DNA of 55,033 nt, taken from Candidatus Saccharimonadales bacterium (GTDB lineage: Bacteria; Patescibacteriota; Saccharimonadia; Saccharimonadales; JACDBH01). Location of the stretch: positions 1 through 55,033 of the forward strand of contig JBATRZ010000062.1 of the NCBI GenBank assembly GCA_049292975.1, given 5' to 3'. Below are positions 3,312-54,532 of this stretch, piece by piece. The translations under genes were made by a program, and so were the position numbers. How positions within the stretch are numbered: position 1 is the stretch's first letter; each line of letters begins with the position of its first letter. Under the pieces are notes generated by a model. The model was not told where the DNA came from and ran no database searches. It was given only the letters and a program-made list of their open reading frames with translations.

Positions 3312-3386
3312 TGGAGAGGGGAGTATCCCCTCTCCACGTGCCGGGCACTGGCATAGCCAGATGCTCGGACTGCTCTCCCCTAGCCC
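3312..3386. repeat. Structured repeat, copy A (variable hairpin plus conserved hairpin plus ACTGCTCT tail)
   Basis: TGGAGAGGGGA-GTA-TCCCCTCTCCA, then CGTG-CCGGGCA-CTGGC-ATA-GCCAG-A-TGCTCGG-ACTGCTCTCCCCTAGCCC. Confidence 0.8.
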
Positions 3387-4867: not shown

Positions 4868-4948
4868 TAGAAAATCTCCGATTTTATATTTGATAGATAA
4901 TATTTGATATTTGAGAAGGAGAAAACGTTTAACACTGTTAGTGTGTTG

Positions 4949-5273: not shown

Positions 5274-5606
5274 CTATTGTAGTCTCTCTTTTATGTGTTC
5301 GGCCAGTGCGCTCAGGTGCGCCACATCCGCCGGACCGAGTAAATCGTATTGGCTGGCTATCAGTATTTGCTCGTTTAACAGATGTGACTGCTCTACTGCC
5401 GCGTCCAGGAACATTTGTTGTTCGGCCGAATCATCGGCATGAAAATACCGTTCGGTATTGATGCGTAAATTGTAGGCACTTTCCTGCACAGCTATCATAG
5501 CCTTGCGCGGTTCGCTGGATAGCGTATTGAATTGCTTTGCCGCCGGCAGGGTCATGATGTACTTTTCGAGCTTTCTCGCCACCTGTGGCAGCGTCAGATC
5601 TTCCAT
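5274..5606 (-). CDS. Hypothetical protein (110 aa, predicted helical)
   Basis: ATG-started ORF lying 4 nt upstream of the next gene. No motif recognised. Confidence 0.45.
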   Translation of the reverse strand: MEDLTLPQVARKLEKYIMTLPAAKQFNTLSSEPRKAMIAVQESAYNLRINTERYFHADDSAEQQMFLDAAVEQSHLLNEQILIASQYDLLGPADVAHLSALAEHIKERLQ

Positions 5607-5621
5607 AAAGAGATTATTGAA

Positions 5622-5644
5622 TACAGATTACTGATTAGAGAATC
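5622..5644. repeat. Left inverted-repeat arm bracketing four-helix-bundle gene 1
   Basis: TACAGATTACTGATTAGAGAATC matches the reverse complement of 6016-6038 at 18 of 23 positions. It overlaps the stop codon. Confidence 0.6.
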
Positions 5645-6018
5645 TGCTTCACCCTCCTGTTCTGCTTATTAGCTTTTTGTAATCCTGCAAGTATTCTTTG
5701 TGCCTCATCAATTTGAAGCAATGTTTTTACACTTAGCTCTTCGCTTATGTAGCCAATGCCTTTTGCGATCAGGTACTGGCACTCGAGTTCTGTCAGAGAA
5801 CCTTTTGCTATCGCATAGAACTGATCTTTTTCCTTTGGACCAAATCTACCAAAACCTTCTGCAATATTTGAGCAAACAGACACCGCTGCTCTACGCATTT
5901 GACTTACCAAGCCGAATAACTCAGATTTTGGAAATTCTTTCGTTATCTCGTAAGTAAGTAGCGAAATTTCATAGGTCTTTTGCCATACGACCAAGTCTTT
6001 AAAGTTAGCTGCAGCCAT
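5635..6018 (-). CDS. Four helix bundle protein (23S rRNA intervening-sequence protein family)
   Basis: FKDLVVWQKTYEISLLTYEITKEFPKSELFGLVSQMRRAAVSVCSNIAEGFGR...AKGSLTELECQ is the hallmark of the PF05635/TIGR02436 family. GC content is lower than in the flanks. Confidence 0.85.
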   Translation of the reverse strand: MAAANFKDLVVWQKTYEISLLTYEITKEFPKSELFGLVSQMRRAAVSVCSNIAEGFGRFGPKEKDQFYAIAKGSLTELECQYLIAKGIGYISEELSVKTLLQIDEAQRILAGLQKANKQNRRVKQIL

Positions 6019-6038
6019 TCTGTAATCTCAAATCTGTA
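6016..6038. repeat. Right inverted-repeat arm bracketing four-helix-bundle gene 1
   Basis: CATTCTGTAATCTCAAATCTGTA is built from CTGTAAT/CTCAAAT heptamer words. It overlaps the start codon. Confidence 0.6.
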
Positions 6039-6052
6039 ATCTAGCTTCTTTA

Positions 6053-6256
6053 CTAGCTGTTAGCCACAAAAGGCATCAGGGCAAGGTGGCGGGCACGCTT
6101 GATAGCGCGGGCCAGCTGGCGCTGCTGTGACTCGGCCAGGCCCGTCTTCTTGCGGGTTTCGATCTGGCCAAACTGATTAACGTAGCGCTGCAAGGTCTTG
6201 AAGTCCTTGTAGTCAAAATATGCTACATCTGTACGGTGTTTAAATATTTTAGCCAT
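6053..6256 (-). CDS. rpsR: 30S ribosomal protein S18
   Basis: ...DYKDFKTLQRYVNQFGQIETRKKTGLAESQQRQLARAIKRARHLALMPF is the bS18 signature. Confidence 0.9.
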   Translation of the reverse strand: MAKIFKHRTDVAYFDYKDFKTLQRYVNQFGQIETRKKTGLAESQQRQLARAIKRARHLALMPFVANS

Positions 6257-6266
6257 AAATTTACGC

Positions 6267-6349
6267 GGGGCTTATGAGAAAACCTAGGTTTTCTCATCGT
6301 GCCGGGCAGCGGCAAAGCCGCATGCTCGGACTGCTCTTTCCTAAGCCCC
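6267..6349. repeat. Structured repeat, copy B
   Basis: GGGGCTTA / ATGAGAAAACC-TA-GGTTTTCTCAT / CGTG-CCGGGCA-GCGGC-AAA-GCCGC-A-TGCTCGG-ACTGCTCTTTCC-TAAGCCCC. The upper stem differs from copy A by compensatory changes. Confidence 0.8.
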
Positions 6350-7059: not shown

Positions 7060-7176
7060 GCCAGAAATTTCACAGTTTTCATTTGGCATTTTACAATAAT
7101 TTTTCATTTTACATCTGTTATTGGAGTCATTTGTGAAATGTGAATTGTGAAATTAATGAAAATTGTAAATTGTTAC
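7060..7176. repeat. Gene-less inverted-repeat module of the TGTGAAA word family, downstream of rpsF
   Basis: The left part carries AAATTTCACAG...CATTTTACA...TTTTCATTTTACAT. The right part carries TTTGTGAAATGTGAATTGTGAAATTAATGAAAATTGTAAATTG. It shares the 15-mer TGTGAATTGTGAAAT and the 9-mer TGTAAATTG with 25459-25500. Confidence 0.75.
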
Positions 7177-7571: not shown

Positions 7572-7600
7572 TGTATCCTTTCTTCGAAAGAGAGGGGATT

Positions 7601-7668
7601 AAAGATTAGAGCTTACAGATTTTAGAATTTTCTTCTCTAATCTGTAATCAAAATTCTGTAATCTTACC
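7601..7668. repeat. Gene-less module of the CTGTAAT/GATTAGAG word family, upstream of rpsF
   Basis: AAAGATTAGAGCTTACAGATTTTAGAATTTTCTTCTCTAATCTGTAATCAAAATTCTGTAATCTT shares GATTAGAG, ATCTGTAATC and TCTGTAATCT with the flanks of gene 5635..6018. Confidence 0.75.
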
Positions 7669-7761
7669 GTAACTTCCTATGGCTCATGGTTAGATACCTA
7701 AGAGTTCTAACCTGAAGTTAATTTGTAACAGAGGTAATTGTAGCAGATAACAGATATGCAG

Positions 7762-8583
7762 TCAAGCTGCCCCAAGCAGCTGGCGGCGCAGCGGGCTGAA
7801 GTATTCGGGCCAGCGCTCTTCCGGGAAAACCAGGGTAACTACATCCGCGGCGCAGGGCTTGGCCTTCTTGACTAAGCCTTCTTCAAGCGCCTGGCCGTAC
7901 ACCGGATCTACGGGCTCCACTGCCATCTCTATGGCTTCGCGCAGGATTTTCATACCTAAGCGGCGGCGGCGCTCGGTATTGCCCGATGACAGGAACGCCT
8001 TTATATCCCTCTGGCTTAAGCTTGTTAGGTCTTGCTTCTGAGCATAGGCAGCAAAGAATTTGCCGATATGCCGCGCAGCATAATCTTCGTTACGGTAGCC
8101 GATGGCACGGTTTTGCTTGGTCTCGTAGTGCATCTGCTTGCGGCCGCGTACAAAATCATAGGTCTTGCCCGACATAGCCACCAGCCCTGGATTGCCTGGG
8201 TCGCGTACGTCTAAGGCCTGGCGCGGCATATATCCGGCCACGGCCAGGACGGTAATGGCAAATTTGTCCTGTTCGGTCCGCGGCAAAATATCGGTGCCGC
8301 CAGGATAAGCCTCGTGAAAATTATTGTGCAGCCAGCGGGCAACCGTCAGGCAGCGGCTATAGCGTACGGCCCGGCCCGCATCACCCTGCAGTTCCCGGGC
8401 CTTTTTTTGATAAAACGAATGATGATCATCACTCCAGGTTCTCCGCTCGCCCCTAGGGGCTTCGTACGGGTGGATAGGATACGGCATGCCGTATTCATCG
8501 GTTGGGGCTAGGGCTAGTTCAGGCGGCTCGGGCAGGCGGAGAGGTGCTGGCGTGCCGGTTGGCGCGACAAGCAGCTCGGGCAT
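7762..8583 (-). CDS. Hypothetical protein (about 273 aa)
   Basis: Long ORF. The track start at 8601 is TTG, so the first ATG at 8583 is used here. No confident motif. Confidence 0.5.
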   Translation of the reverse strand: MPELLVAPTGTPAPLRLPEPPELALAPTDEYGMPYPIHPYEAPRGERRTWSDDHHSFYQKKARELQGDAGRAVRYSRCLTVARWLHNNFHEAYPGGTDILPRTEQDKFAITVLAVAGYMPRQALDVRDPGNPGLVAMSGKTYDFVRGRKQMHYETKQNRAIGYRNEDYAARHIGKFFAAYAQKQDLTSLSQRDIKAFLSSGNTERRRRLGMKILREAIEMAVEPVDPVYGQALEEGLVKKAKPCAADVVTLVFPEERWPEYFSPLRRQLLGAA

Positions 8584-16491: not shown

Positions 16492-17088
16492 TTATTTAAT
16501 TTTCTGTAATATGGCGGGGATGCGCGCGAAGTCATCTATTAGTGTCTGGCGCATGCCGCCGTTGTATAACGCTGCTGCGGGATGGAAAAGTGGTAAATAC
16601 ACTTGCCCTTTGTAGCGTTTGGGTTCGCCGTGAACCTGGTTGATTGAAGCCCCAGGCAAAAAGCAATTCATACTGTGACGTCCTAGTGTCACGACAATCT
16701 TAGGTTGAATTACCTCTAACTGTGCCTCCAAGTATGGCAGGAAAGCGGCTTTTTCGTCCGGGCTGGGGTCGCGGTTGTTAGGTGGCCGGTACTTGACGAT
16801 GTTGGTGATGTAAATGTCCTGGCGTTCCAGCCCAATGGTTGCGAGCATTTCGTTCAGGAACTTGCCTGCCGCACCCACAAACGGAATGCCCTGTTCGTCC
16901 TCGTTCTTGCCTGGTGCTTCACCGATGAACACAATGTCTGCATCAGGATTACCATCCCCAAACACGAGACGATTGGCCGTACGAGCCAAATCCGGGCAGA
17001 CATTCTGACGCAAAATCTCTTCTTTGATTTCATCAAGAAGCTTTTGCTTGGAATCTGGAATCTGGAATTTAGAATCTGGGTCAGCCAC
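16492..17088 (-). CDS. Uracil-DNA glycosylase, family 4
   Basis: VFGDGNPDADIVFIGEAPGKNEDEQGIPFVGAAGKFLNEML plus a C-terminal HPAAAL. GTG start at 17088 preceded by an AAGAGGGG Shine-Dalgarno sequence. Confidence 0.85.
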   Translation of the reverse strand: MADPDSKFQIPDSKQKLLDEIKEEILRQNVCPDLARTANRLVFGDGNPDADIVFIGEAPGKNEDEQGIPFVGAAGKFLNEMLATIGLERQDIYITNIVKYRPPNNRDPSPDEKAAFLPYLEAQLEVIQPKIVVTLGRHSMNCFLPGASINQVHGEPKRYKGQVYLPLFHPAAALYNGGMRQTLIDDFARIPAILQKIK

Positions 17089-17136
17089 CGTGCACCCCTC
17101 TTATTCCAAATTCCAGCTTCAAACTTCCAGCTTCTG
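17050..17136. repeat. Heptamer-word imperfect palindrome spanning the UDG start codon
   Basis: The left arm is GGAATCT GGAATCT GGAATTT AGAATCT GGG (17050-17080). The right arm is TTCCAAA TTCCAGC TTCAAAC TTCCAGC TTCTG (17104-17136). Confidence 0.8.
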
Positions 17137-20151: not shown

Positions 20152-20889
20152 TTAAATCTGTCGAATATCTTGCAGACTGAAATCTGCAACATCTATAGCA
20201 TCGGCCAGCTTGTAGTTGCCAACCTCAGTACGCTTCAGGCTGCTCATGTAAGCTCCCGTACCAAGCTTTTCGCCGGTGTCACGGGCCAGGCTGCGAATAT
20301 AAGTGCCCGAGCTTACCCTGGCCGTAAAACGGACCGCCGGATAAGAATATTTGATATCTGATATCTGATAGACAGTCACGGGACGGGGCTCAATAATGAC
20401 TGCTTTGCCCTCGCGTACCAGTTTGTACGCCCGCTTGCCGTCTACTTTGATAGCGCTGAAGGCCGGCGGCTGCTGCAGAGTAACGCCCACAAATGTATTC
20501 AGCACCTCCCGCACCTCGCCCTCACTAGGCATTTTTGCGCTGGTTTTGGTCTTTTCGCCCTCGCCGTCATCTGTTACAGAGGTCGTGCCTAAAATTAGTT
20601 CAGTCTCATATACCTTATCCAGCTTGCTAAACTCCTGCGCACGTTTGCAGTACGTGCCGGTCACGATAATTAGCAGGCCCGTAGCCAGCGGGTCCAGGGT
20701 ACCCGTATGCCCCACTTTTACTTTCGGTGAAGAATTCTGAATTGAGATTTGAGGATTGAGGGGATTGTTTCCTCCCCTGTTTTCTCGTTTCTCGTTTCGT
20801 AATTCTGTCCGCAGGACATTACGGACCTTGGCTACGACATCAAAAGACGTCCAGCCCGCCGGCTTATTAATCAGAACAATTCCATCCAT
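20152..20889 (-). CDS. truB: tRNA pseudouridine(55) synthase TruB with in-frame low-complexity insertion
   Basis: MDGIVLINKPAGWTSFDVV...GHTGTLDPLATG...SSGTYIRSL. Start set at the ATG at 20889, because the upstream extension in the track has no homology. Confidence 0.9.
   Translation of the reverse strand: MDGIVLINKPAGWTSFDVVAKVRNVLRTELRNEKRENRGGNNPLNPQISIQNSSPKVKVGHTGTLDPLATGLLIIVTGTYCKRAQEFSKLDKVYETELILGTTSVTDDGEGEKTKTSAKMPSEGEVREVLNTFVGVTLQQPPAFSAIKVDGKRAYKLVREGKAVIIEPRPVTVYQISDIKYSYPAVRFTARVSSGTYIRSLARDTGEKLGTGAYMSSLKRTEVGNYKLADAIDVADFSLQDIRQI
20732..20805. repeat. Heptamer-word imperfect palindrome, in frame in truB
   Basis: GAATTCT GAATTGA GATTTGA GGATTGA GGGGA-TTGTTTCC-TCCCC TGTTTTC TCGTTTC TCGTTTC GTAATTC. 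Confidence 0.8.
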
Positions 20890-23442: not shown

Positions 23443-23790
23443 ATGCCAATTATCAAATCAGCGAAGAAGCGCGTCAAGCAAACCCGCAAAGCGACCGTCC
23501 GCAACGCCCGTACCAAGCGTTCTTTACGCAGCTCGCTCAAGGGCTTTTCAAAAAAGCCAAGCGCAACGTCAAAGTCCAAGGCCGAGAGCAACCTGGACAA
23601 GGCCGCCAAGAAGGGCCTGGTCCACAAGAACAAGGTCGCCCGCAAGAAGCGTCAGCTCGCAGCCAGCGCCAAAAAGGCCGGCGTCAAGCCCGCTGCCGCC
23701 AAGAAGGCCGTAGCCAAGAAAGCGCCTGCCAAGAAGGCAGCCCCAGCTAAGAAACCAGCCGCCAAAAAGGCTCCTGCCAAGAAAAAATAA
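23443..23790 (+). CDS. rpsT: 30S ribosomal protein S20 with Lys/Ala/Pro-rich C-terminal tail
   Basis: MPIIKSAKKRVKQTRKATVRNARTKRSLRS is the bS20 N-terminus. The C-terminal 40 aa are AKKA/PAKK repeats. Confidence 0.9.
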   Translation: MPIIKSAKKRVKQTRKATVRNARTKRSLRSSLKGFSKKPSATSKSKAESNLDKAAKKGLVHKNKVARKKRQLAASAKKAGVKPAAAKKAVAKKAPAKKAAPAKKPAAKKAPAKKK

Positions 23791-24145: not shown

Positions 24146-25060
24146 CTAGATAGTAAGGAGGAAGTGCTGCACGGCGTCGTCGGCGTCTATCATCTCTGAT
24201 TTTAACCGCACGTCCAGCGCCAGTGCCCTGTCTACCAGATCCTTGACCTGTTTTTGCGACAAATTGTGTGTAAGATTGAGGGTTTTGTGCACAACGTATG
24301 GATTGAGCTTGGCGGTGCGGGCTATTTCGTCCGCGCCGTCGCTCTCGTTGAACTTGACCACCGCCAGCACATGCACCTGCCAGGCAATCATGCCCATGAT
24401 GGCCTGCGGCTCTACTGCTTGCTTGCGCTGGTCCTGGTACAGCTCCAGCACGCGCCGCTTGTTGCCCGCGAAGGCGGCATCTATCAGGTCGAACACACTG
24501 CTCCCCGGCAACGGTTCGGTAAGCAGGTCTATGCTGGCCTTCGTAACCTTGTCTTCATACAGCAGCAGCTTGTCCAGCTCGTTACTTAGGCTCATCTGAT
24601 TAGTGCCAAGCCGCGACACCATGTAGCTAGCATCCGTCATTGTCAGGCTGCCGCCGCGCGCCCTGGCCTCGCCTACCAGCCAGGCCGCCAGGCCGCGCTC
24701 GTCAAGCTCAGTGAATTCACGCAGCTCGGCACGCTTCTTGAGCGTCTTATACAGGCCCAGGCGCTTATCGAACTTGCGCTCGTTAATAATAAGATCGGTG
24801 GTATCAGCAACGGCATCCAGCAGCTTGCCGGGGTCATCGGCCAGCGCTTTGTTGGCGGCGGGACTTAAAAGCATTATCATCCGGCGCGGCGCTAAAAAAG
24901 GCAGGCTGGACACGCTCTCTAGCAGGCGGCCGAATTCCACATCACCAGCGTCAATTGTTTCCAGCCCAAAATCGCCATGCTCGGCTACGAAACCAGCCGT
25001 AAGCTTCTTCAGCTCAGCACTGCGGGCAAAATCATTACTGCCGGTTAAAACAAGTATCAT
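24146..25060 (-). CDS. holA: DNA polymerase III subunit delta
   Basis: The N-terminus MILVLTGSNDFARSAELKKL...LESVSSLPFLAPRRMIML and the overall 304-aa helical layout are typical of HolA. Confidence 0.8.
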   Translation of the reverse strand: MILVLTGSNDFARSAELKKLTAGFVAEHGDFGLETIDAGDVEFGRLLESVSSLPFLAPRRMIMLLSPAANKALADDPGKLLDAVADTTDLIINERKFDKRLGLYKTLKKRAELREFTELDERGLAAWLVGEARARGGSLTMTDASYMVSRLGTNQMSLSNELDKLLLYEDKVTKASIDLLTEPLPGSSVFDLIDAAFAGNKRRVLELYQDQRKQAVEPQAIMGMIAWQVHVLAVVKFNESDGADEIARTAKLNPYVVHKTLNLTHNLSQKQVKDLVDRALALDVRLKSEMIDADDAVQHFLLTI

Positions 25061-25064
25061 TTAT

Positions 25065-25087
25065 CAATTCACATTTCACATTTCACA
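25065..25087. repeat. Left inverted-repeat arm bracketing four-helix-bundle gene 2
   Basis: CAATTCACATTTCACATTTCACA is complementary to 25477-25499 at 22 of 23 positions, with a 17-nt perfect core. Confidence 0.9.
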
Positions 25088-25095
25088 TTAATGTA

Positions 25096-25458
25096 TCATT
25101 TGCCATTTTTCAGTGTAGAAATGATTTTCTGCAAGATGAAAAGCAGCTGGCTTACCTCATCTATTTCATTATGACAGGAAAAATTCTCATTGGCTTCCTG
25201 TAGGAGCCTTAGCCAGTAGCGCGTTTCTGCAGCTTCTTTCTTGGCTATGAATATTTTATTTCTAAAATCCAAGCGGGATGCGGCATTGTTTGCCTCTGTA
25301 TAATTGGCCCCGATACCGGTTGCAGAACGGATTAATTGGGTCTTGATGATTCTGTTCTCTGAGGTTTCTGGCAAAGGTTTCACAAGCCGTATGATCTGAA
25401 GCGAGAACTTAATTGTACGCTCCTCTAATTCTTTGGATCTGCCTTGTGAATTGTCCAT
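25096..25458 (-). CDS. Four helix bundle protein (23S rRNA intervening-sequence protein family)
   Basis: ...FSLQIIRLVKPLPETSENRIIKTQLIRSATGIGANYTEANNAASRLDFRNKIFIAKKEAAETRYWL fits the PF05635/TIGR02436 pattern. The gene is low-GC. Confidence 0.85.
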   Translation of the reverse strand: MDNSQGRSKELEERTIKFSLQIIRLVKPLPETSENRIIKTQLIRSATGIGANYTEANNAASRLDFRNKIFIAKKEAAETRYWLRLLQEANENFSCHNEIDEVSQLLFILQKIISTLKNGK

Positions 25459-25476
25459 TGTGAAATTATTGTGAAT

Positions 25477-25499
25477 TGTGAAATGTGAAATGTAAATTG
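25477..25499. repeat. Right inverted-repeat arm bracketing four-helix-bundle gene 2
   Basis: TGTGAAATGTGAAATGTAAATTG, made of heptamer words TGTGAAA. Confidence 0.9.
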
Positions 25500-25564
25500 C
25501 TCATGCTTCCTCTGCGAGAATTTTTACGGTGGGGTTGTAGCATGGGCGTATACTTGATTGCGAC

Positions 25565-27742: not shown

Positions 27743-28705
27743 CTAGACAGACTGGCAACGGGGGCAAGTATGGGTGCCGCGGCCGGCAACTTTGGTTTTG
27801 ATAATAACCGTGCCGGGGTGGCGCGGGCAGTCCTTGCCCTCACGCCGGAACACACGGGCAAAATCTATGTAGCTCCCCTTCTTACCCTCGGCATTCACGT
27901 AATTCCTGTCCGTCGAACCGCCCTTTTCTATAGCTAATTCCAGTACTAGCCTAAGCTCAGAATATAGAATATAGATTTTGGATTTTGGAATATCGGCCAC
28001 TTTGCTTGCGGGGTGGATTTTGGCGCCCCAAAGTGATTCGTCGGCGTAGATATTGCCTACTCCGGCCAAGACAGTTTGATCGAGTAATGCTGCTTTGATG
28101 GACGTCTTTGCCCTTTTTTGCAAACGTTCGTAGAGAATTTTGGCGGTAAACTCATCACTCAGCGGCTCGGGCCCCACCTTCTTGAAGAAGTCTATATTTG
28201 GCACCTCAACAGTTGGCAACAGCCGCATCCAGCCAAACTTCCGCTGGTCATTAAAATACATGTGAGAGGACTGTCCTCTCACATCTTCGAGGTGGAGGGT
28301 TGCGCGGGTGGATTTGTCTGGCAATCTGCCGATGAGACTGTCGTTGGGATGCCCTGCCCCAAACCGCTCCTCTGGAGTAAAGTCCTTGGTCTTTAGTCTT
28401 CCGTCTTCAGTCTTGACTGGTGACCGCTGACTGGTGACCGCTGACTCCCGTTTACGCACGTAAACAAGCTGGCCCGTCATCTTCAAGTGAATTACCAGGC
28501 TGTAGCCAGAGTCTAAATCTATTATTAAAACTTTGGCACGACGGCGTACATCAATAATTTGTGCGCCAATTAAAAACTGCGCTACATCACCCGGCGCATT
28601 GGGAAAAGACTTGGGCCAATCAAAATCTACTGATTTGACCGTTTTGCCAATAATTAATTTATGCAAGCCACGCCGGACAGTCTCTACCTCTGGTAATTCA
28701 GGCAT
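27743..28705 (-). CDS. mutM: Formamidopyrimidine-DNA glycosylase (Fpg/MutM) with in-frame insertions
   Basis: MPELPEVETVRRGL, H2TH (LLDQTVLAGVGNIYADESLW), and a C-terminal zinc finger CPRH...CPRCQ. About 50 aa longer than E. coli Fpg. Confidence 0.9.
   Translation of the reverse strand: MPELPEVETVRRGLHKLIIGKTVKSVDFDWPKSFPNAPGDVAQFLIGAQIIDVRRRAKVLIIDLDSGYSLVIHLKMTGQLVYVRKRESAVTSQRSPVKTEDGRLKTKDFTPEERFGAGHPNDSLIGRLPDKSTRATLHLEDVRGQSSHMYFNDQRKFGWMRLLPTVEVPNIDFFKKVGPEPLSDEFTAKILYERLQKRAKTSIKAALLDQTVLAGVGNIYADESLWGAKIHPASKVADIPKSKIYILYSELRLVLELAIEKGGSTDRNYVNAEGKKGSYIDFARVFRREGKDCPRHPGTVIIKTKVAGRGTHTCPRCQSV
27959..27993. repeat. Heptamer tandem array in mutM coding sequence
   Basis: AGAATAT AGAATAT AGATTTT GGATTTT GGAATAT, encoding PKSKIYILYSE on the minus strand. 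Confidence 0.85.
28262..28282. repeat. 21-nt perfect palindrome GTGAGAGGAC-T-GTCCTCTCAC, in frame in mutM
   Basis: Read directly from the sequence. Encodes VRGQSSH. The flanking bases extend the palindrome to ATGTGAGAGGAC.GTCCTCTCACAT. Confidence 0.95.
28389..28445. repeat. Heptamer-periodic module, in frame in mutM
   Basis: GTCTTTA GTCTTCC GTCTTCA GTCTTGA C, then TGGTGAC CGCTGAC TGGTGAC CGCTGAC. 57 nt, equal to 19 codons. Confidence 0.85.
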
Positions 28706-36270: not shown

Positions 36271-39038
36271 ATCTCGCCCCAGTTTTTACCGCTATCAACA
36301 TCAACCTTCAGCTTAACTCCAAGCTCCGGATAGACATGTTCCATCGTTTCTTTCATCAGCTCGCCAACTTTTTCGGCATCGTCGGCATGGCATTCCACCA
36401 GGATACTGTCATGAATCTGCAACAACATGCGGGGCACGCCCGCAGGAGTGAGGAGTGAGGAGTGGGGAGTGGGTTTTTCAGACCCTTTCTTCTTACTTCT
36501 TTCTGCTTTCTCCGCAAAAGTTTGATCAAACTTTTGCTGCAACCGTACCATTGCTAATTTTGTGAGATCGGCCGCGCTGCCCTGGATAGGCATATTGATG
36601 GCCTGGCGGTAGGCGCCTTCGCGCACCATGAAATTGCTGGACTTTACGTCGGGCGTGGGGCGGCGGCGACCCAGTATCGTCTCGACATAGCCCTTCTTTA
36701 GGGCCTGTTCGCGCAAAGACTCGATGTATAGCTTTAATTTGGGACGGATCATAAAGTACTTGGCGATGAAATCGCGCGCCTCGGCAAAACTCATGCCCGT
36801 ACCCTCGGCCAGCCCGTGCGGCCCCTGGCCGTACATGATGCCAAAGTTCACGGCTTTGGCGTTATAGCGCATTTGTTTGGTGACTTCCTCGGGATCTATG
36901 TTCAGCACCGCGGCAGCAGTCAGCACATGGACGTCCTGGTCTTCGTTGAAGGCACGGATCATGTCTTCATCGCCGCTCAGCGCGGCAGCCAGACGGATTT
37001 CAAACTGTGAGTAGTCAGCGCTCACGAACACGTGGCCGGGCCGGGCCACAAAGCCGGTACGGATTTTTTTGCCAAGTTCAGTCCGAACGGGGATGTTCTG
37101 CAAATTTGGCTCGTTGCTGCTCAGGCGCCCGGTGGGGGCAATGGTCATCCGGAAGTTGGTGTGCACGCGGCCGTTTTCGTCCATCTGCTTTGGCAGCGTA
37201 TCGACATAGGTGCTCTTGAGCTTGGTGTACTCGCGGTATTGTTCGATACAGTCGATGATAGGGTGCAGCGCCCGTAGTTTGTTCAACACATCCGAGGCGG
37301 TGGAAAAATGCCCGGCTTTGCCCTTCTTTACGTTCCACGGCTGGCCTTCGTAGCCGTGCGTCAATTTGGCCTGCGTGCTTGAAGTTGGCAGCTGTAATTT
37401 CTCAAATAATATTTCGGACAATTGCCCCGGGCTGGAGATATTGAACTCTTGGTCGGCATGGCCGTAGATGGTCTGCTCGATGTCGCTGATTTTATCGGCC
37501 AGCTCATCGCCCATTTTGGCCAAGTAGCCGGCGTCCAGGCCAATGCCCTCGTATTCCATGCGCGCCAGAACCGGAATCACCGGCCACTCGACTTGGTCGC
37601 TGAGAGTAATCAGCTTGGTCAGCTCGCTCATACTCTCGGCCTGGTAATTCTGCAGGGCCTTAATGACAGCGACTAGCTCGCCTGCCCGTTTATGCAGCTC
37701 TTCTGAATTCAGCGCGTCAAGGCTGGCGGTTTCGTGGCCAAGGTCAGCAAAAGCCAGTTCGGTCAAAGTAGTAACGCGGCGGATGGAATTGATAAGGAAC
37801 GCGCCCACTAGTACATCATGACTAACTTTTGGTAATTCCACGCCAAGGTCCAGCAGCACCTTCAGACTGGCCTTAAGGTCGTAGCCTATGACATTCTTCA
37901 GCTCACCAAGCTTGGCAGCCACGGCTTTTTTATCCAGGGCCTTCAGGTCGAGTACATAGGCTGTCTTATCATCTGCTAGCACGATGGTTTCGGCACCGCG
38001 GCCATGTTGCCCGGACGCGTAGCTGTGCAGCACCATCTCGTCCTGTATCTTGATAGCCTTTAACGCGCCGTTCATGATGACCAGCTCTGTCTTCAGCGGT
38101 TCGATAGCGCCTGCCGTCACTTTATGCACGGGCGCTTCACTGTTATCCAGGACCTGCATGTACTCGGGCAGTTGGCGCAGCAGGCTGCGGAATTCCAGGT
38201 TGGTCAGCAGGCTCTTAAGCGCATGCACGTCCAGGTCGCGCGTGTCCGTCGCCTGAAGATCCAGGTCTACCGGCGCGTCATCCATTAGTAGCGCGACTTG
38301 CTTGCTTAAGTAGGCCGACTCTTTGCCCGCCTCAAGCTTTTTGCGGGTAGTTTCTTTGATTAACGCCAGGTTGTCATAGATGTTATCGAGCGTCTTGTAA
38401 TCCTGCAGCAGTTGCACGGCGGTCTTCTCGCCCACACCCGGCACACCTGGGATGTTATCGGAGCTGTCACCTTTGAGCGACTTCAAATCCAGGAATTGTT
38501 CTACCTCTATACCGTGTTTTTGTTCAAAATATTCAATGTCAAACCGTTCGATGTTGCTAAAGCCCTTTTTGAGCACATAGACGTGTGAATGCTGGCCGAT
38601 GCACTGCAGAGCGTCCAGATCACTGGTGATTAGCATAGTCTCCAGGCCGGCTTTATCCGCCTTCTTAGCCAGGGTACACATGATGTCATCGGCCTCGTAA
38701 TCATCCAGCTCATACAGGGGCCAGCTGAAGGCTTTGAGCAGGTCGTGCAGGATAGGAATCTGCACGTAGAAATCCGGCGGCGCAGGCTTGCGGCCGGCCT
38801 TGTACTGCGGGTACAGCTCTAGCCGTTTGCGGATGTTGGTCTTGGGCTTGTCCCAGGCCACAGCCACATAATCGGGCTTGAGCCTCTTCAGCAGCTCCAG
38901 TGACATGGCGGCAAAGCCGTAGACGCCGCCCGTAGGCGTACCGTCCTTGGTGCTGAGGTTGGGCATGGCATAATAGCCGCGGTAAAACACGCTCTTGCCA
39001 TCTATGATTGCCAGTTTCTTCCGAGCAGTATCAGCCAT
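36267..39038 (-). CDS. polA: DNA polymerase I
   Basis: 5'-nuclease domain (LAIIDGKSVFYRGYYA), then polymerase motifs DYSQFEIRLAA, RYNAKAVNFGIMYG and QIHDSILVE. ATG at 39038. Confidence 0.95.
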   Translation of the reverse strand: MADTARKKLAIIDGKSVFYRGYYAMPNLSTKDGTPTGGVYGFAAMSLELLKRLKPDYVAVAWDKPKTNIRKRLELYPQYKAGRKPAPPDFYVQIPILHDLLKAFSWPLYELDDYEADDIMCTLAKKADKAGLETMLITSDLDALQCIGQHSHVYVLKKGFSNIERFDIEYFEQKHGIEVEQFLDLKSLKGDSSDNIPGVPGVGEKTAVQLLQDYKTLDNIYDNLALIKETTRKKLEAGKESAYLSKQVALLMDDAPVDLDLQATDTRDLDVHALKSLLTNLEFRSLLRQLPEYMQVLDNSEAPVHKVTAGAIEPLKTELVIMNGALKAIKIQDEMVLHSYASGQHGRGAETIVLADDKTAYVLDLKALDKKAVAAKLGELKNVIGYDLKASLKVLLDLGVELPKVSHDVLVGAFLINSIRRVTTLTELAFADLGHETASLDALNSEELHKRAGELVAVIKALQNYQAESMSELTKLITLSDQVEWPVIPVLARMEYEGIGLDAGYLAKMGDELADKISDIEQTIYGHADQEFNISSPGQLSEILFEKLQLPTSSTQAKLTHGYEGQPWNVKKGKAGHFSTASDVLNKLRALHPIIDCIEQYREYTKLKSTYVDTLPKQMDENGRVHTNFRMTIAPTGRLSSNEPNLQNIPVRTELGKKIRTGFVARPGHVFVSADYSQFEIRLAAALSGDEDMIRAFNEDQDVHVLTAAAVLNIDPEEVTKQMRYNAKAVNFGIMYGQGPHGLAEGTGMSFAEARDFIAKYFMIRPKLKLYIESLREQALKKGYVETILGRRRPTPDVKSSNFMVREGAYRQAINMPIQGSAADLTKLAMVRLQQKFDQTFAEKAERSKKKGSEKPTPHSSLLTPAGVPRMLLQIHDSILVECHADDAEKVGELMKETMEHVYPELGVKLKVDVDSGKNWGEI
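36445..36513. repeat. Heptamer-word imperfect palindrome, in frame in polA
   Basis: GGAGTGA GGAGTGA GGAGTGG GGAGTGG GT-TTTTCAG-ACCCTTTC TTCTTAC TTCTTTC TGCTTTC TCC. 69 nt, equal to 23 codons. Confidence 0.85.
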
Positions 39039-45666: not shown

Positions 45667-45672
45667 TCTATT

Positions 45673-45747
45673 AGGGTACAGGGTTTAGGGTTTGGGGTAC
45701 AGCGTAAGGGCTTTTACTAAGTCCCGCACCCTCGACCACTCACCCTG
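45673..45747. repeat. Intergenic G-word / C-word imperfect palindrome in the dnaG divergent promoter region
   Basis: AGGGTAC AGGGTTT AGGGTTT GGGGTAC AG ... CCCGCACCCTCGACCACTCACCCTG. It shares GGGGTACAG with 23317-23326. Confidence 0.7.
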
Positions 45748-53180: not shown

Positions 53181-53202
53181 AATACCGATAATTATCGCAC
53201 AG

Positions 53203-53250
53203 AATTGAAGGAATTGAAGGGTCTGACCCTTAACAGATAGGGTTTTTGCG
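53203..53250. repeat. Direct repeat, copy 1 (GAATTGAAG words plus GGGTCTGACCC palindrome plus TAACAGATAG)
   Basis: 53208-53240 is identical over 33 nt to 54481-54513. The flanks are also similar, about 45 of 48 positions overall. Confidence 0.9.
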
Positions 53251-53260
53251 TTTTTTTGGG

Positions 53261-54449: not shown

Positions 54450-54475
54450 TGTAATTTAGATATAGAATTAAAGGG

Positions 54476-54523
54476 AATTAAAGGAATTGAAGGGTCTGAC
54501 CCTTAACAGATAGAGATTTTGCG
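54476..54523. repeat. Direct repeat, copy 2
   Basis: AAGGAATTGAAGGGTCTGACCCTTAACAGATAG is identical to copy 1, 1273 bp away in the same orientation. Confidence 0.9.
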
Positions 54524-54532
54524 AGTTTTACT

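Follow-up and report, generated by a model that had tools for sequence, protein, structure and literature searches.

The window analyzed here is a 55,033-nt stretch of DNA (contig JBATRZ010000062.1 of a Candidatus Saccharimonadales bacterium), which the names of its homologues place in the Saccharibacteria, a lineage of the Candidate Phyla Radiation (CPR). Between rpsR and efp it carries a small gene of the 23S rRNA intervening-sequence (IVS) protein family, enclosed by two inverted arrays of 7-nt repeats that abut its start and stop codons. This unit, termed cassette 1, is probably an IVS-type selfish cassette within an mRNA operon, that is, a promoterless PF05635 gene between two inverted tandem-heptamer arrays. 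The IVS architecture, with heptamer arrays as arms, appears to be the normal state of the PF05635 family outside rRNA. This generality appears to be new, as does the occurrence of bracketed cassettes in mRNA operons across CPR, Cyanobacteria and Bacteroidota; rRNA intervening sequences bearing an open reading frame (ORF) and their RNase III stems were already known, as were heptamer arrays, which had been left unexplained. The original prediction, which had proposed a mobile or RNase III-processed cassette from the sequence of this locus, is partly supported.

Cassette 1 and Its Arms

The gene of cassette 1 (5635..6018, minus strand) encodes a 127-aa four-helix-bundle protein. It matches PF05635 (23S_rRNA_IVP) with an E value of 1.9e-35 and 121.7 bits (cutoff 33.8) and TIGR02436, "four helix bundle protein", with 108.2 bits (cutoff 24), and its closest solved structure is PDB 2GSC (Xanthomonas XCC0516; E 1.6e-18, residues 9-116). 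On these profile matches the protein is a member of PF05635/TIGR02436, in agreement with the family named at the outset. The description of a low-GC gene is likewise borne out, with values of 0.39-0.42 (about 0.40) across the gene vs 0.52 for the whole window.

Re-reading of the reported inverted repeat confirms 18/23 identical positions between 5622-5644 (TACAGATTACTGATTAGAGAATC) and the reverse complement of 6016-6038 (TACAGATTTGAGATTACAGAATG). The repeat search lengthens it to 25 nt at 80% identity (5619-5643 / 6017-6041), with 373 nt between the arms, and the coordinates place both the start codon (6018-6016) and the stop codon (5637-5635) within the arms. Rfam and tRNA scans of the window gave no match of any kind; with no rRNA present, the predicted geometry of an ORF in a stem-loop outside rRNA holds. 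Three points go beyond the original prediction, namely the heptamer arrays, the interruptions of the stem and the lack of the long-range stem in the unconstrained fold. The arms are tandem arrays of 7-nt units. The upstream arm (6019..6042, minus strand; also detected as an inverted repeat and by TRF with period 7, 3.4 copies) reads AGATTAC AGATTTG AGATTAC AGA in mRNA sense and abuts the ATG; the downstream arm (5607..5637, minus strand; also from the inverted-repeat search) reads TAATCAG TAATCTG TATTCAA TAATCTC TTT, extends from the stop codon to the next ATG (5606) and also shows up through a 14-nt direct repeat. When the ORF is replaced by a tetraloop, the arms fold with −22.5 kcal/mol (z = −3.1). 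The complementarity of cassette 1 (at least 15/20 between a gene's own flanks) is reached by just 1.3% of 924 control genes from related loci, and only 1/924 combines it with an equally strong 7-nt periodicity in both flanks, so that a chance origin of the bracket is unlikely.

The gene order is rpsF-ssb-rpsR-[cassette 1]-orfA-orfB-efp-tlyA. Since the cassette 1 gene shares the strand of its neighbors, lies about 32 nt from each and has no promoter-like or terminator-like site adjoining it, it is predicted to be transcribed only as a passenger of the host operon.

Heptamer Brackets across the Family

All loci, 80 of them metagenomic and obtained with a family alignment search, were scanned with a hidden Markov model built from 121 family proteins. 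The survey sample comprised 85 non-redundant family genes, mostly from CPR, with 60-nt flanks, and 924 other genes of the same loci served as controls. Excess 7-nt periodicity occurs in both flanks of 61% of the family genes vs 1% of the controls, and a heptad signal is present in at least one flank in 98% vs 16%. Ungapped complementarity of at least 17/20 between a gene's own flanks was found in 51% of the family and in 0.4% (4/924) of the controls, with median flank duplex energies of −25.8 vs −19.2 kcal/mol. The Mann-Whitney p values are 3e-38 for complementarity, 2e-45 for upstream periodicity and 7e-28 for downstream periodicity.

The arrays usually consist of 3-5 units abutting the ATG and the stop codon. 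The heptamer itself varies by cassette (GAATATT, AGTATCT, GGGTAAG, GGTAGAA and others), and the 7-nt period alone is universal. Mirror order beyond the heptamer core is seen in 44% of the brackets, against 5% expected from base shuffling within the heptamer phase. The upstream neighbor is co-directional in 69/76 cases (median gap 32 nt) and the downstream neighbor in 53/70 (median gap 34 nt). Furthermore, the cassette ORFs have a GC content of 36.6% vs 44.5% for their flanks (lower in 70/76), and many polar residues are invariant across the family. Stop codons in all three frames were considered as the reason for the period of 7, but this property is not universal among the arms.

These figures bear directly on the alternative that a normal operon gene has been inherited vertically and that its AT-rich spacers of low complexity are complementary by chance or composition. 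The flanks are indeed AT-rich, the arms of cassette 1 are complementary at just 18/23 positions, the same locus is occupied in several genera, and the permuted-pair control is itself somewhat raised. However, the difference in periodicity between the family and the 924 same-locus genes, the recurrence of the bracket with heptamers that are unrelated and in some cases GC-rich (L093, L099, Nostoc, Azospirillum), the excess of mirror order and the absence of the gene from the closest relatives make this explanation very improbable.

The arrays are also strongly polar: the G-containing heptamer strand lies 5' and the C-containing strand 3' in 65/85 cassettes, and the order is reversed in 2. At the level of sequence comparison, this polarity shows that some constraint on the transcript or on its translation exists. 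Translational control alone could produce such a pattern. A gene without a normal Shine-Dalgarno sequence would then have the purine-rich heptamers as its leader, a repeated ribosome-binding or enhancer element, and the array after the stop codon as an anti-leader; translation would take place only with the stem melted, e.g., by ribosomes that complete the ORF or the gene before it, and neither cleavage nor mobility would be involved. The exact abutment of the arms on ATG and stop codon and the purine-rich upstream arms with their strong strand polarity fit this picture. For Beggiatoaceae (PMC4679880) and Nostoc (preprint), a role in translational regulation has been suggested for heptamer repeats that stop 1 nt short of start codons, and Coxiella S23p is not translated unless a ribosome-binding site is added (PMC4990558). 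However, many heptamers (AGTATCT, TTTCACA) do not resemble a Shine-Dalgarno sequence, no G·U enrichment is seen, and the heptamer hairpins that enclose no ORF, the patchy distribution, the low GC content and the recurrence of the same architecture inside RNase III-cut rRNA would all be left unexplained. Translational control as the whole explanation is accordingly judged improbable.

A positive control was provided by the scan itself, as its strongest match among the control genes (L108:1255-1968) is a REPtron, in which a REP-associated tyrosine transposase (RAYT) gene is flanked by repetitive extragenic palindromic (REP) sequences. The gene, judged from its translation alone to be a RAYT-type transposase, lies between GTAGGGCCAGACCCTAC REP hairpins in the classical arrangement. 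Another control gene, DUF559-like by eye (L159:785-1141), lies between GC-rich palindromes; in both of these control genes the inverted repeats are not heptameric.

Copies in Plasmids and in rRNA

A tblastn search against plasmids returned 36 records, mostly from heterocystous cyanobacteria and Riemerella. A heptad signal was found in at least one flank of 10/12 inspected annotated plasmid genes (cyanobacteria, Riemerella), and clear inverted arrays, (GTAGGGA)n/(TCCCTAC)n and (GGGAACA)n/(CTGTTCC)n, occur in Nostoc. The plasmid genes sit tightly in operons such as cas10-cmr3, cas6-cas4 and ribonucleotide reductase (RNR). The CRISPR-cas hosts are Picosynechococcus (L180), Pseudanabaena (L179) and Anabaena 90 (L185), where one copy is placed between cas10 and cmr3 and two copies separate cas6 from cas4. 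The gaps measure 35-45 nt around the cas10-cmr3 copy of Picosynechococcus and on the downstream side of the Anabaena gene, and 100-360 nt elsewhere in the cas operons.

On plasmid AZO_p2 of Azospirillum lipoferum 4B (L187:380-900), a family ORF lies inside a large-subunit (LSU) rRNA gene (RF02541, 662 bits); this insertion is a true, unannotated helix-45 IVS. The ORF is flanked by CAGAGGA CGGATGA CAGAGGA... and by the inverted TCCGTCC TCTGTCT TCTGTCA..., and three of the four mismatches read between these arms are G·U-compatible. In the Coxiella IVS, GACAGAT heptamers (two or three copies, depending on the strain) directly precede the S23p ATG, and a 28-bp terminal stem is cleaved by RNase III at its middle, as shown experimentally (PMC4990558). 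The bracket is therefore common to rRNA-borne and mRNA-borne copies, and the link to 23S rRNA intervening sequences is stronger than first claimed. Collectively, these comparisons establish the putative stem-forming bracket as a family-wide trait, present in several phyla and in genuine rRNA intervening sequences.

The rpsR-efp Site in Related Genomes

A protein identical to that of cassette 1 is found on 47 contigs, at the same locus in 24/24 contigs read. Proteins with 74%, 74% and 59% identity are encoded at the corresponding position, with rpsR upstream and orfA or efp downstream. These orthologues keep inverted heptamer flanks with changed units (AGATTAA, AGATTTT vs AGATTAC), so that the check at the same locus returns a conserved bracket with altered heptamers.

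A scan anchored on EF-P yielded 80 Saccharibacteria species loci. A close family gene lies between ssb/rpsR and efp in 5/80, two of the five being truncated, and two more loci hold a distant member. Most of the 80 loci have no family gene at all, including the six closest by EF-P (85-90% identity). In one of the loci without the cassette (L019), rpsR is followed after 11 nt by orfA; in many other relatives efp follows rpsR after 12-23 nt. L093 and L076 carry an extra family copy after efp, and L035 and L067 have a heptamer hairpin without an ORF in the rpsR-efp spacer. Empty, hairpin-only and hairpin-plus-ORF loci therefore represent three states at one site, and the arm-ORF-arm unit is evidently gained and lost as a block among related Saccharibacteria. 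At this site the identity of the cassette protein correlates weakly with that of EF-P (rho 0.37); between the window (WIN) and L076, for instance, the values are 35% vs 74%. This weak congruence argues for turnover over one ancient insertion, and simple vertical inheritance is rejected on the same ground, together with the absence of the gene from the nearest relatives. The synteny comparison from rpsR to efp thus gives a patchy presence and absence, clean junctions relative to L019 and some loci with a hairpin only. As to the mobile cassette originally proposed, the patchiness, the clean junctions in the nearest relatives, the poor tracking of EF-P and an AT content above that of the hosts all speak for it; no mobility mechanism was identified.

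Since synonymous divergence (dS) is saturated, identity at 4-fold degenerate sites was used as the reference for the arms. Between orthologues the arms are 54-90% identical vs 22-50% at the 4-fold sites of the enclosed ORF; the upstream arm of cassette 1, for example, is 90% identical to that of the L005 orthologue, with 50% at the 4-fold sites. Nonsynonymous divergence (dN) between orthologues is 0.19-0.42, and the sole dN/dS ratio obtained is 0.11 (L010 vs L062). Arms and protein are therefore both constrained. Within three species groups, no strain-to-strain variation of heptamer copy number was found.

The rpsR-efp spacer (L016-L095) is a hot spot of small variable genes in Saccharibacteria. 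Besides cassettes it contains orfA and orfB, other unrelated short ORFs, or nothing; in L017, L018 and L024 it holds a gene of about 115 aa with a conserved HNHLGN motif. Across species, several spacers within rpsF-ssb-rpsR repeatedly harbor heptamer hairpins lacking an ORF. One locus (L023:2900-3520) has (CTGTNAN)n heptamers before ssb and a gene-less AGAATTT/AGATTTT-type hairpin after it. A start-codon remnant at the apex of such hairpins was considered and dropped, as many heptamers contain ATG or TGA anyway.

Cassette 2 and Gene-Less Sibling Hairpins

The sole other family member in the window, the cargo of cassette 2, is bracketed as well. This gene (25096..25458, minus strand; PF05635 E 6.5e-17, 62.1 bits; TIGR02436 81.7 bits) encodes a 120-aa four-helix-bundle protein about 25% identical to that of cassette 1. 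Its upstream arm, (TTTCACA)n at 25459..25499 (minus strand; inverted repeats; TRF period 7, 8.4 copies), abuts the ATG, and its downstream arm, (ATGTGAA)n at 25061..25098 (minus strand), begins with the stop codon and ends where holA starts (25060). The arms match over 62 nt at 71%, including a 23-nt core at 96% complementarity. With a tetraloop in place of the ORF they form a 23-bp helix (−30.7 kcal/mol, z = −5.7), and they show mirror order beyond the heptamer core (p < 0.005, bases shuffled within the heptamer phase). The polarity of cassette 2 is reversed, as in only one other cassette, and its gene comes first after a neighbor of divergent orientation; its upstream heptamers supply a promoter-like TTTACA-17-CACAAT (25468-25496, minus strand).

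Both family genes in the window are thus bracketed, each by a heptamer of its own, and both heptamer types are also present in gene-less form. The sibling hairpin of cassette 1, with AGATTAC-type heptamers, lies in the rpsF leader (7597..7663, minus strand; inverted repeat of 31 nt, 74%, 5-nt loop, also seen in the fold), and a similar rpsF-leader hairpin is present in L019, which has no cassette gene. The sibling of cassette 2, with TGTGAAA/TTTCACA-type heptamers, occupies the rpsF-ssb spacer (7066..7172, minus strand; inverted repeats), where 61 nt are 74% identical to 25444-25504. A third ORF-less hairpin, (TGGAATC)n / (ATTCCAN)n, stands between two same-strand genes (17049..17129, minus strand; inverted repeat of 27 nt, 81%). 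Period-7 arrays were called by TRF at 6019-6042, 25068-25089 and 25444-25499, and 21/37 TRF rows of the window have a period of 7 or 14.

These sibling hairpins lend weight to the main rival of the IVS-type reading, a REPtron-like system. The four-helix-bundle protein would here be the trans-acting partner of its own heptamer arrays, acting on DNA or via protein recognition; each gene would be flanked by cognate heptamers as a RAYT gene is by REPs, the ORF-less hairpins would be targets or products, and the inverted symmetry would reflect protein binding or DNA hairpins and not an RNA stem. Each window cassette does have an ORF-less sibling with its own heptamer type, the heptamer sequence is cassette-specific while the period alone is universal, no G·U bias is found, some members have direct or non-complementary arrays, many polar residues of the family are invariant, and the strongest control match of the same scan was a RAYT/REP REPtron (the RAYT judged from its translation). 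Arrays of 3-5 units would also fit a pentamer, and 2GSC is described as a pentameric toroid in PMC4990558, citing Lin et al. 2006. The same paper quotes an old idea of Ralph and McClelland, that the IVS ORF encodes a mobility component, and a preprint on Nostoc postulates an unidentified heptamer-binding protein.

Taking into account the opposing points, the REPtron-like system is held to be unlikely. The PF05635 family is not known to have any nucleic-acid binding specificity or catalytic activity; the 5'-purine/3'-pyrimidine polarity (65 vs 2) argues for a constraint at the transcript or translation level; and the sibling hairpins are also explicable by common descent or recombination. In a broader and rather doubtful form of the proposal, PF05635 proteins would be the missing partner of bacterial heptamer arrays at large (short tandemly repeated repetitive (STRR) sequences, GGGAATC, TAACTGA and others), recognizing, regulating or propagating their cognate hairpins in a REPtron-like manner, with the rRNA IVS as one landing site and mRNA operons (ribosomal-protein, CRISPR-cas, RNR) as the common one.

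Proposed Mechanism

For the IVS-type selfish cassette, the reading that we favor, the following sequence of events is envisaged. In the polycistronic RNA, the purine-rich upstream array would pair with the complementary downstream array, and the AUG and the stop codon would be the exact points of closure of the stem, so that the start of the cassette gene would be masked. By analogy with the Coxiella IVS and the hairpin of the hmw leader of Haemophilus influenzae, the stem may offer an RNase III site, and a cut at this site would free the cassette RNA and divide the host transcript. The cassette apparently encodes no mobility enzyme, and its spread would most plausibly occur by homologous exchange, via the conserved flanking genes or with ORF-less hairpins as landing pads.

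Several observations weigh against this mechanism. At the RNA level, the predicted stem of cassette 1 is weak and interrupted (8 bp, a 3x3 loop, 5 bp, 5 bp), and in the unconstrained minimum-energy fold of 5590-6060 (471 nt) the long-range stem is not formed (z = −1.1). The arms of cassette 1 show no order-specific mirror symmetry beyond their common heptamer core (p = 0.5). Mismatches in 63 brackets are G:T in 28 and A:C in 34 cases (p = 0.53), i.e., without a G·U excess, and the duplex energies of sense and antisense strands are equal across the brackets; the complementarity is therefore not assignable to the RNA level. The RNase III signature motif was not found in the window either, an outcome that carries no information for a 55-kb piece of a genome. 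At the DNA level, the junctions of cassette 1 show no target-site duplication relative to the empty sites L019 and L025, no transposase lies in or beside the cassette, and no recombinase was found. Moreover, the bracket is not always complete: Pseudanabaena (L179:495-1065) has long direct arrays, with about 14 copies of GCTAAAA upstream and about 10 of GCCAAAA downstream, the inner arrays of Nostoc 7120 and Stanieria are not complementary near the gene, and the L076 copies have no downstream arm. These direct, non-complementary and one-armed cases suggest that the arrays, and not the stem, may be the primary feature.

Three puzzles have stood separate for about 30 years: the role of the ORFs in rRNA intervening sequences, the thousands of "four helix bundle protein" genes scattered in CPR, cyanobacterial and Bacteroidota genomes, and the function of heptamer repeats. 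Because the gene and its inverted heptamer arrays travel together, inside and outside rRNA, our findings suggest that these are one problem. Heptamer arrays abutting the ATG and the stop codon provide a sequence rule for finding further cassettes, and tractable hosts are at hand, e.g., Nostoc and Picosynechococcus, with the gene inside cas operons. A further prediction of the favored reading is that a structured passenger, possibly cleaved by RNase III, interrupts essential operons, rpsF-rpsR-efp among them.

Host Operon and Other Repeats of the Window

The gene upstream of cassette 1, at a distance of 34 nt, is rpsR, encoding ribosomal protein S18 (6053..6256, minus strand; PF01084 E 5.5e-20). 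Downstream, after 28 nt, follows orfA (5274..5606, minus strand), a conserved 110-aa gene with no Pfam or NCBIfam match; its assignment as a degenerate member of the IVS-protein family was rejected (hhalign probability 2%). A candidate promoter of the rpsF-ssb-rpsR-cassette-orfA-orfB-efp unit, TTGACT-17-TG-TACAAT, lies ahead of the rpsF leader at 7737..7765 (minus strand; 10/12 matches plus an extended −10), and relatives carry a similar motif, TTGACTAACAG..., upstream of rpsF.

The genes directly after cassettes (orfA at 5606, holA at 25060, efp at L006:4415 and L010:4416) start just after the pyrimidine-rich arm and have no Shine-Dalgarno sequence recognizable by eye; rpsF, by contrast, has AAGGA. 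This raises the question of how the essential downstream genes are translated. Read in mRNA sense, the orfB-efp spacer (4868-4948) contains about four copies of the pyrimidine-type heptamer TCAAATA ahead of the Shine-Dalgarno sequence of efp. This array is one-sided, with no complementary partner nearby, and could be the leftover of a lost cassette arm; the TATCAAA heptamer of this spacer also occurs in the rpsF leaders of relatives L020 and L027.

Further period-7 arrays (36444-36511, 28389-28446, 27959-27989, 20347-20370) lie within long ORFs according to crude gene calls, including AGGAGTG x4 beside CTTTCTT x4 and TGACTGGTGACCGC x2.4; they represent either coding 7-nt repeats or miscalled genes. 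At 45671-45698, in a spacer between divergent genes, TTAGGGT x4 has the same unit as the plant telomere repeat TTTAGGG. Other repeats of the window differ in kind. A 52-nt GC-rich repeat (83% identical), found between the tlyA-like and crp-like genes (3331-3382) and in the ssb-rpsR spacer (6292-6343), follows the pattern TCTC..CGTGCCGGGCA..GGCA.AGCC..ATGCTCGGACTGCTCT..CCTA and is a REP-like dispersed element distinct from the heptamer arrays. A 55-nt repeat (53202-53256 and 54475-54529, 91% identical) begins with two 9-10-nt units (GAATTGAAG) followed by a GGGTCTGACCC hairpin and may be a shared terminator or regulatory module. Finally, a coding repeat with 15-nt periodicity at 23656-23783 (AAGAAGGC.GC.CC.) specifies an Ala/Lys/Pro-rich, AKKA-type tail, histone-H1-like or of low complexity.

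Comparison with Known Systems

The relation to the accessory variability determinant (Avd) proteins of diversity-generating retroelements (DGRs), named in the original prediction, stands at the family level only. Cassette 1 shares with Avd (bAvd) the fold superfamily, a pentameric four-helix bundle, and a weak sequence similarity, but the Avd models remain below their cutoffs (PF22296, 22 bits vs 40; NF033474, 26.4 bits vs 80). The window contains no pair of template and variable repeats (TR/VR) and, of reverse-transcriptase (RT) motifs, four chance-level [FY]xDD matches, none of them near cassette 1. With no TR/VR pair, no convincing RT and rpsR, orfA, orfB and efp as neighbors, a DGR was rejected. 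A miniature inverted-repeat transposable element or another transposon with terminal inverted repeats (MITE/TIR) was set aside for want of a target-site duplication and of a transposase in or beside the cassette. Integron gene cassettes, promoterless ORFs with one attC site on their 3' side that stand in an array beside intI, also differ, since the repeats on the two sides here pair across the ORF and the cassettes are single and scattered in housekeeping operons; no search aimed at an integrase was made.

Like a REPtron, cassette 1 has a small gene between inverted copies of a short repeat, and the same repeat also occurs without the gene as intergenic hairpins; such dispersed, gene-less copies were found at 7597-7663 and 7066-7172, within 55 kb of genome. 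In contrast to a REPtron, the cargo is a four-helix bundle (PF05635 only) and not an HUH/Y1 (IS200-like) transposase, and the arms are tandem heptamer arrays and not a single palindromic REP. We know of no nuclease or recombinase activity in PF05635 cargo.

PF05635 genes are numerous in Cyanobacteria, Xanthomonas and Bacteroidota, and taxa holding them (with Xanthomonas represented by 2GSC) are also among those in which intergenic heptamer arrays are known. These arrays comprise the cyanobacterial STRR and GGGGAYT repeats and the GGGAATC repeats of Xanthomonas, the latter including 70-75 convergent pairs (Xanthomonas, Nostoc: PMC4692102), as well as the TAACTGA repeats of Beggiatoaceae, cyanobacteria and Bacteroidetes (PMC4679880). 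As in cassette 1, they are tandem, intergenic 7-nt units, in many cases reaching up to a start codon; some occur as inverted pairs with stem-loop potential, and array length differs among relatives. Unlike them, the arrays described here bracket one gene family, with a unit that differs per cassette instead of one genome-wide unit. Neither of these heptamer papers (PMC4692102, PMC4679880) mentions S23p or four-helix-bundle genes, and in the titles and abstracts of 25 papers naming the family, repeats beside the gene are treated only in the Coxiella paper (PMC4990558).

A cleavable counterpart in mRNA is found in the 5' untranslated region of H. influenzae hmw, where RNase III cuts an imperfect hairpin formed by a heptamer array and a complementary downstream tract (PMC12721329). 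The pairing of a heptamer array in mRNA with a tract downstream of it is shared with the putative stem of cassette 1; the hmw hairpin, however, is compact, encloses no gene, is phase-variable with at least 10 units and has no PF05635 partner.

The closest resemblance is to the rRNA intervening sequences of Coxiella burnetii, Leptospira and Azospirillum. They have in common with cassette 1 the cargo family (S23p/PF05635), an ORF forming the loop of a terminal-inverted-repeat stem, heptamers directly before the ATG, a sporadic distribution and a poor native ribosome-binding site. Differences are also evident. The Coxiella stem has 28 bp with one mismatch and one bulge, vs the shorter, more interrupted 20/25 of cassette 1, and the Coxiella ORF is reported as decaying, whereas the protein of cassette 1 is under purifying selection. 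Excision by RNase III has been demonstrated for the rRNA elements and is a prediction for cassette 1. Of the features that define an IVS, terminal inverted repeats able to form a stem and a sporadic distribution were found, and a 23S location was not: cassette 1 lies between protein-coding genes of an mRNA operon and not in 23S helix 25 or 45, and it is therefore not a 23S rRNA IVS. Its architecture is nonetheless, on the comparisons made above, evidently homologous to that of the ORF-bearing 23S rRNA intervening sequences.

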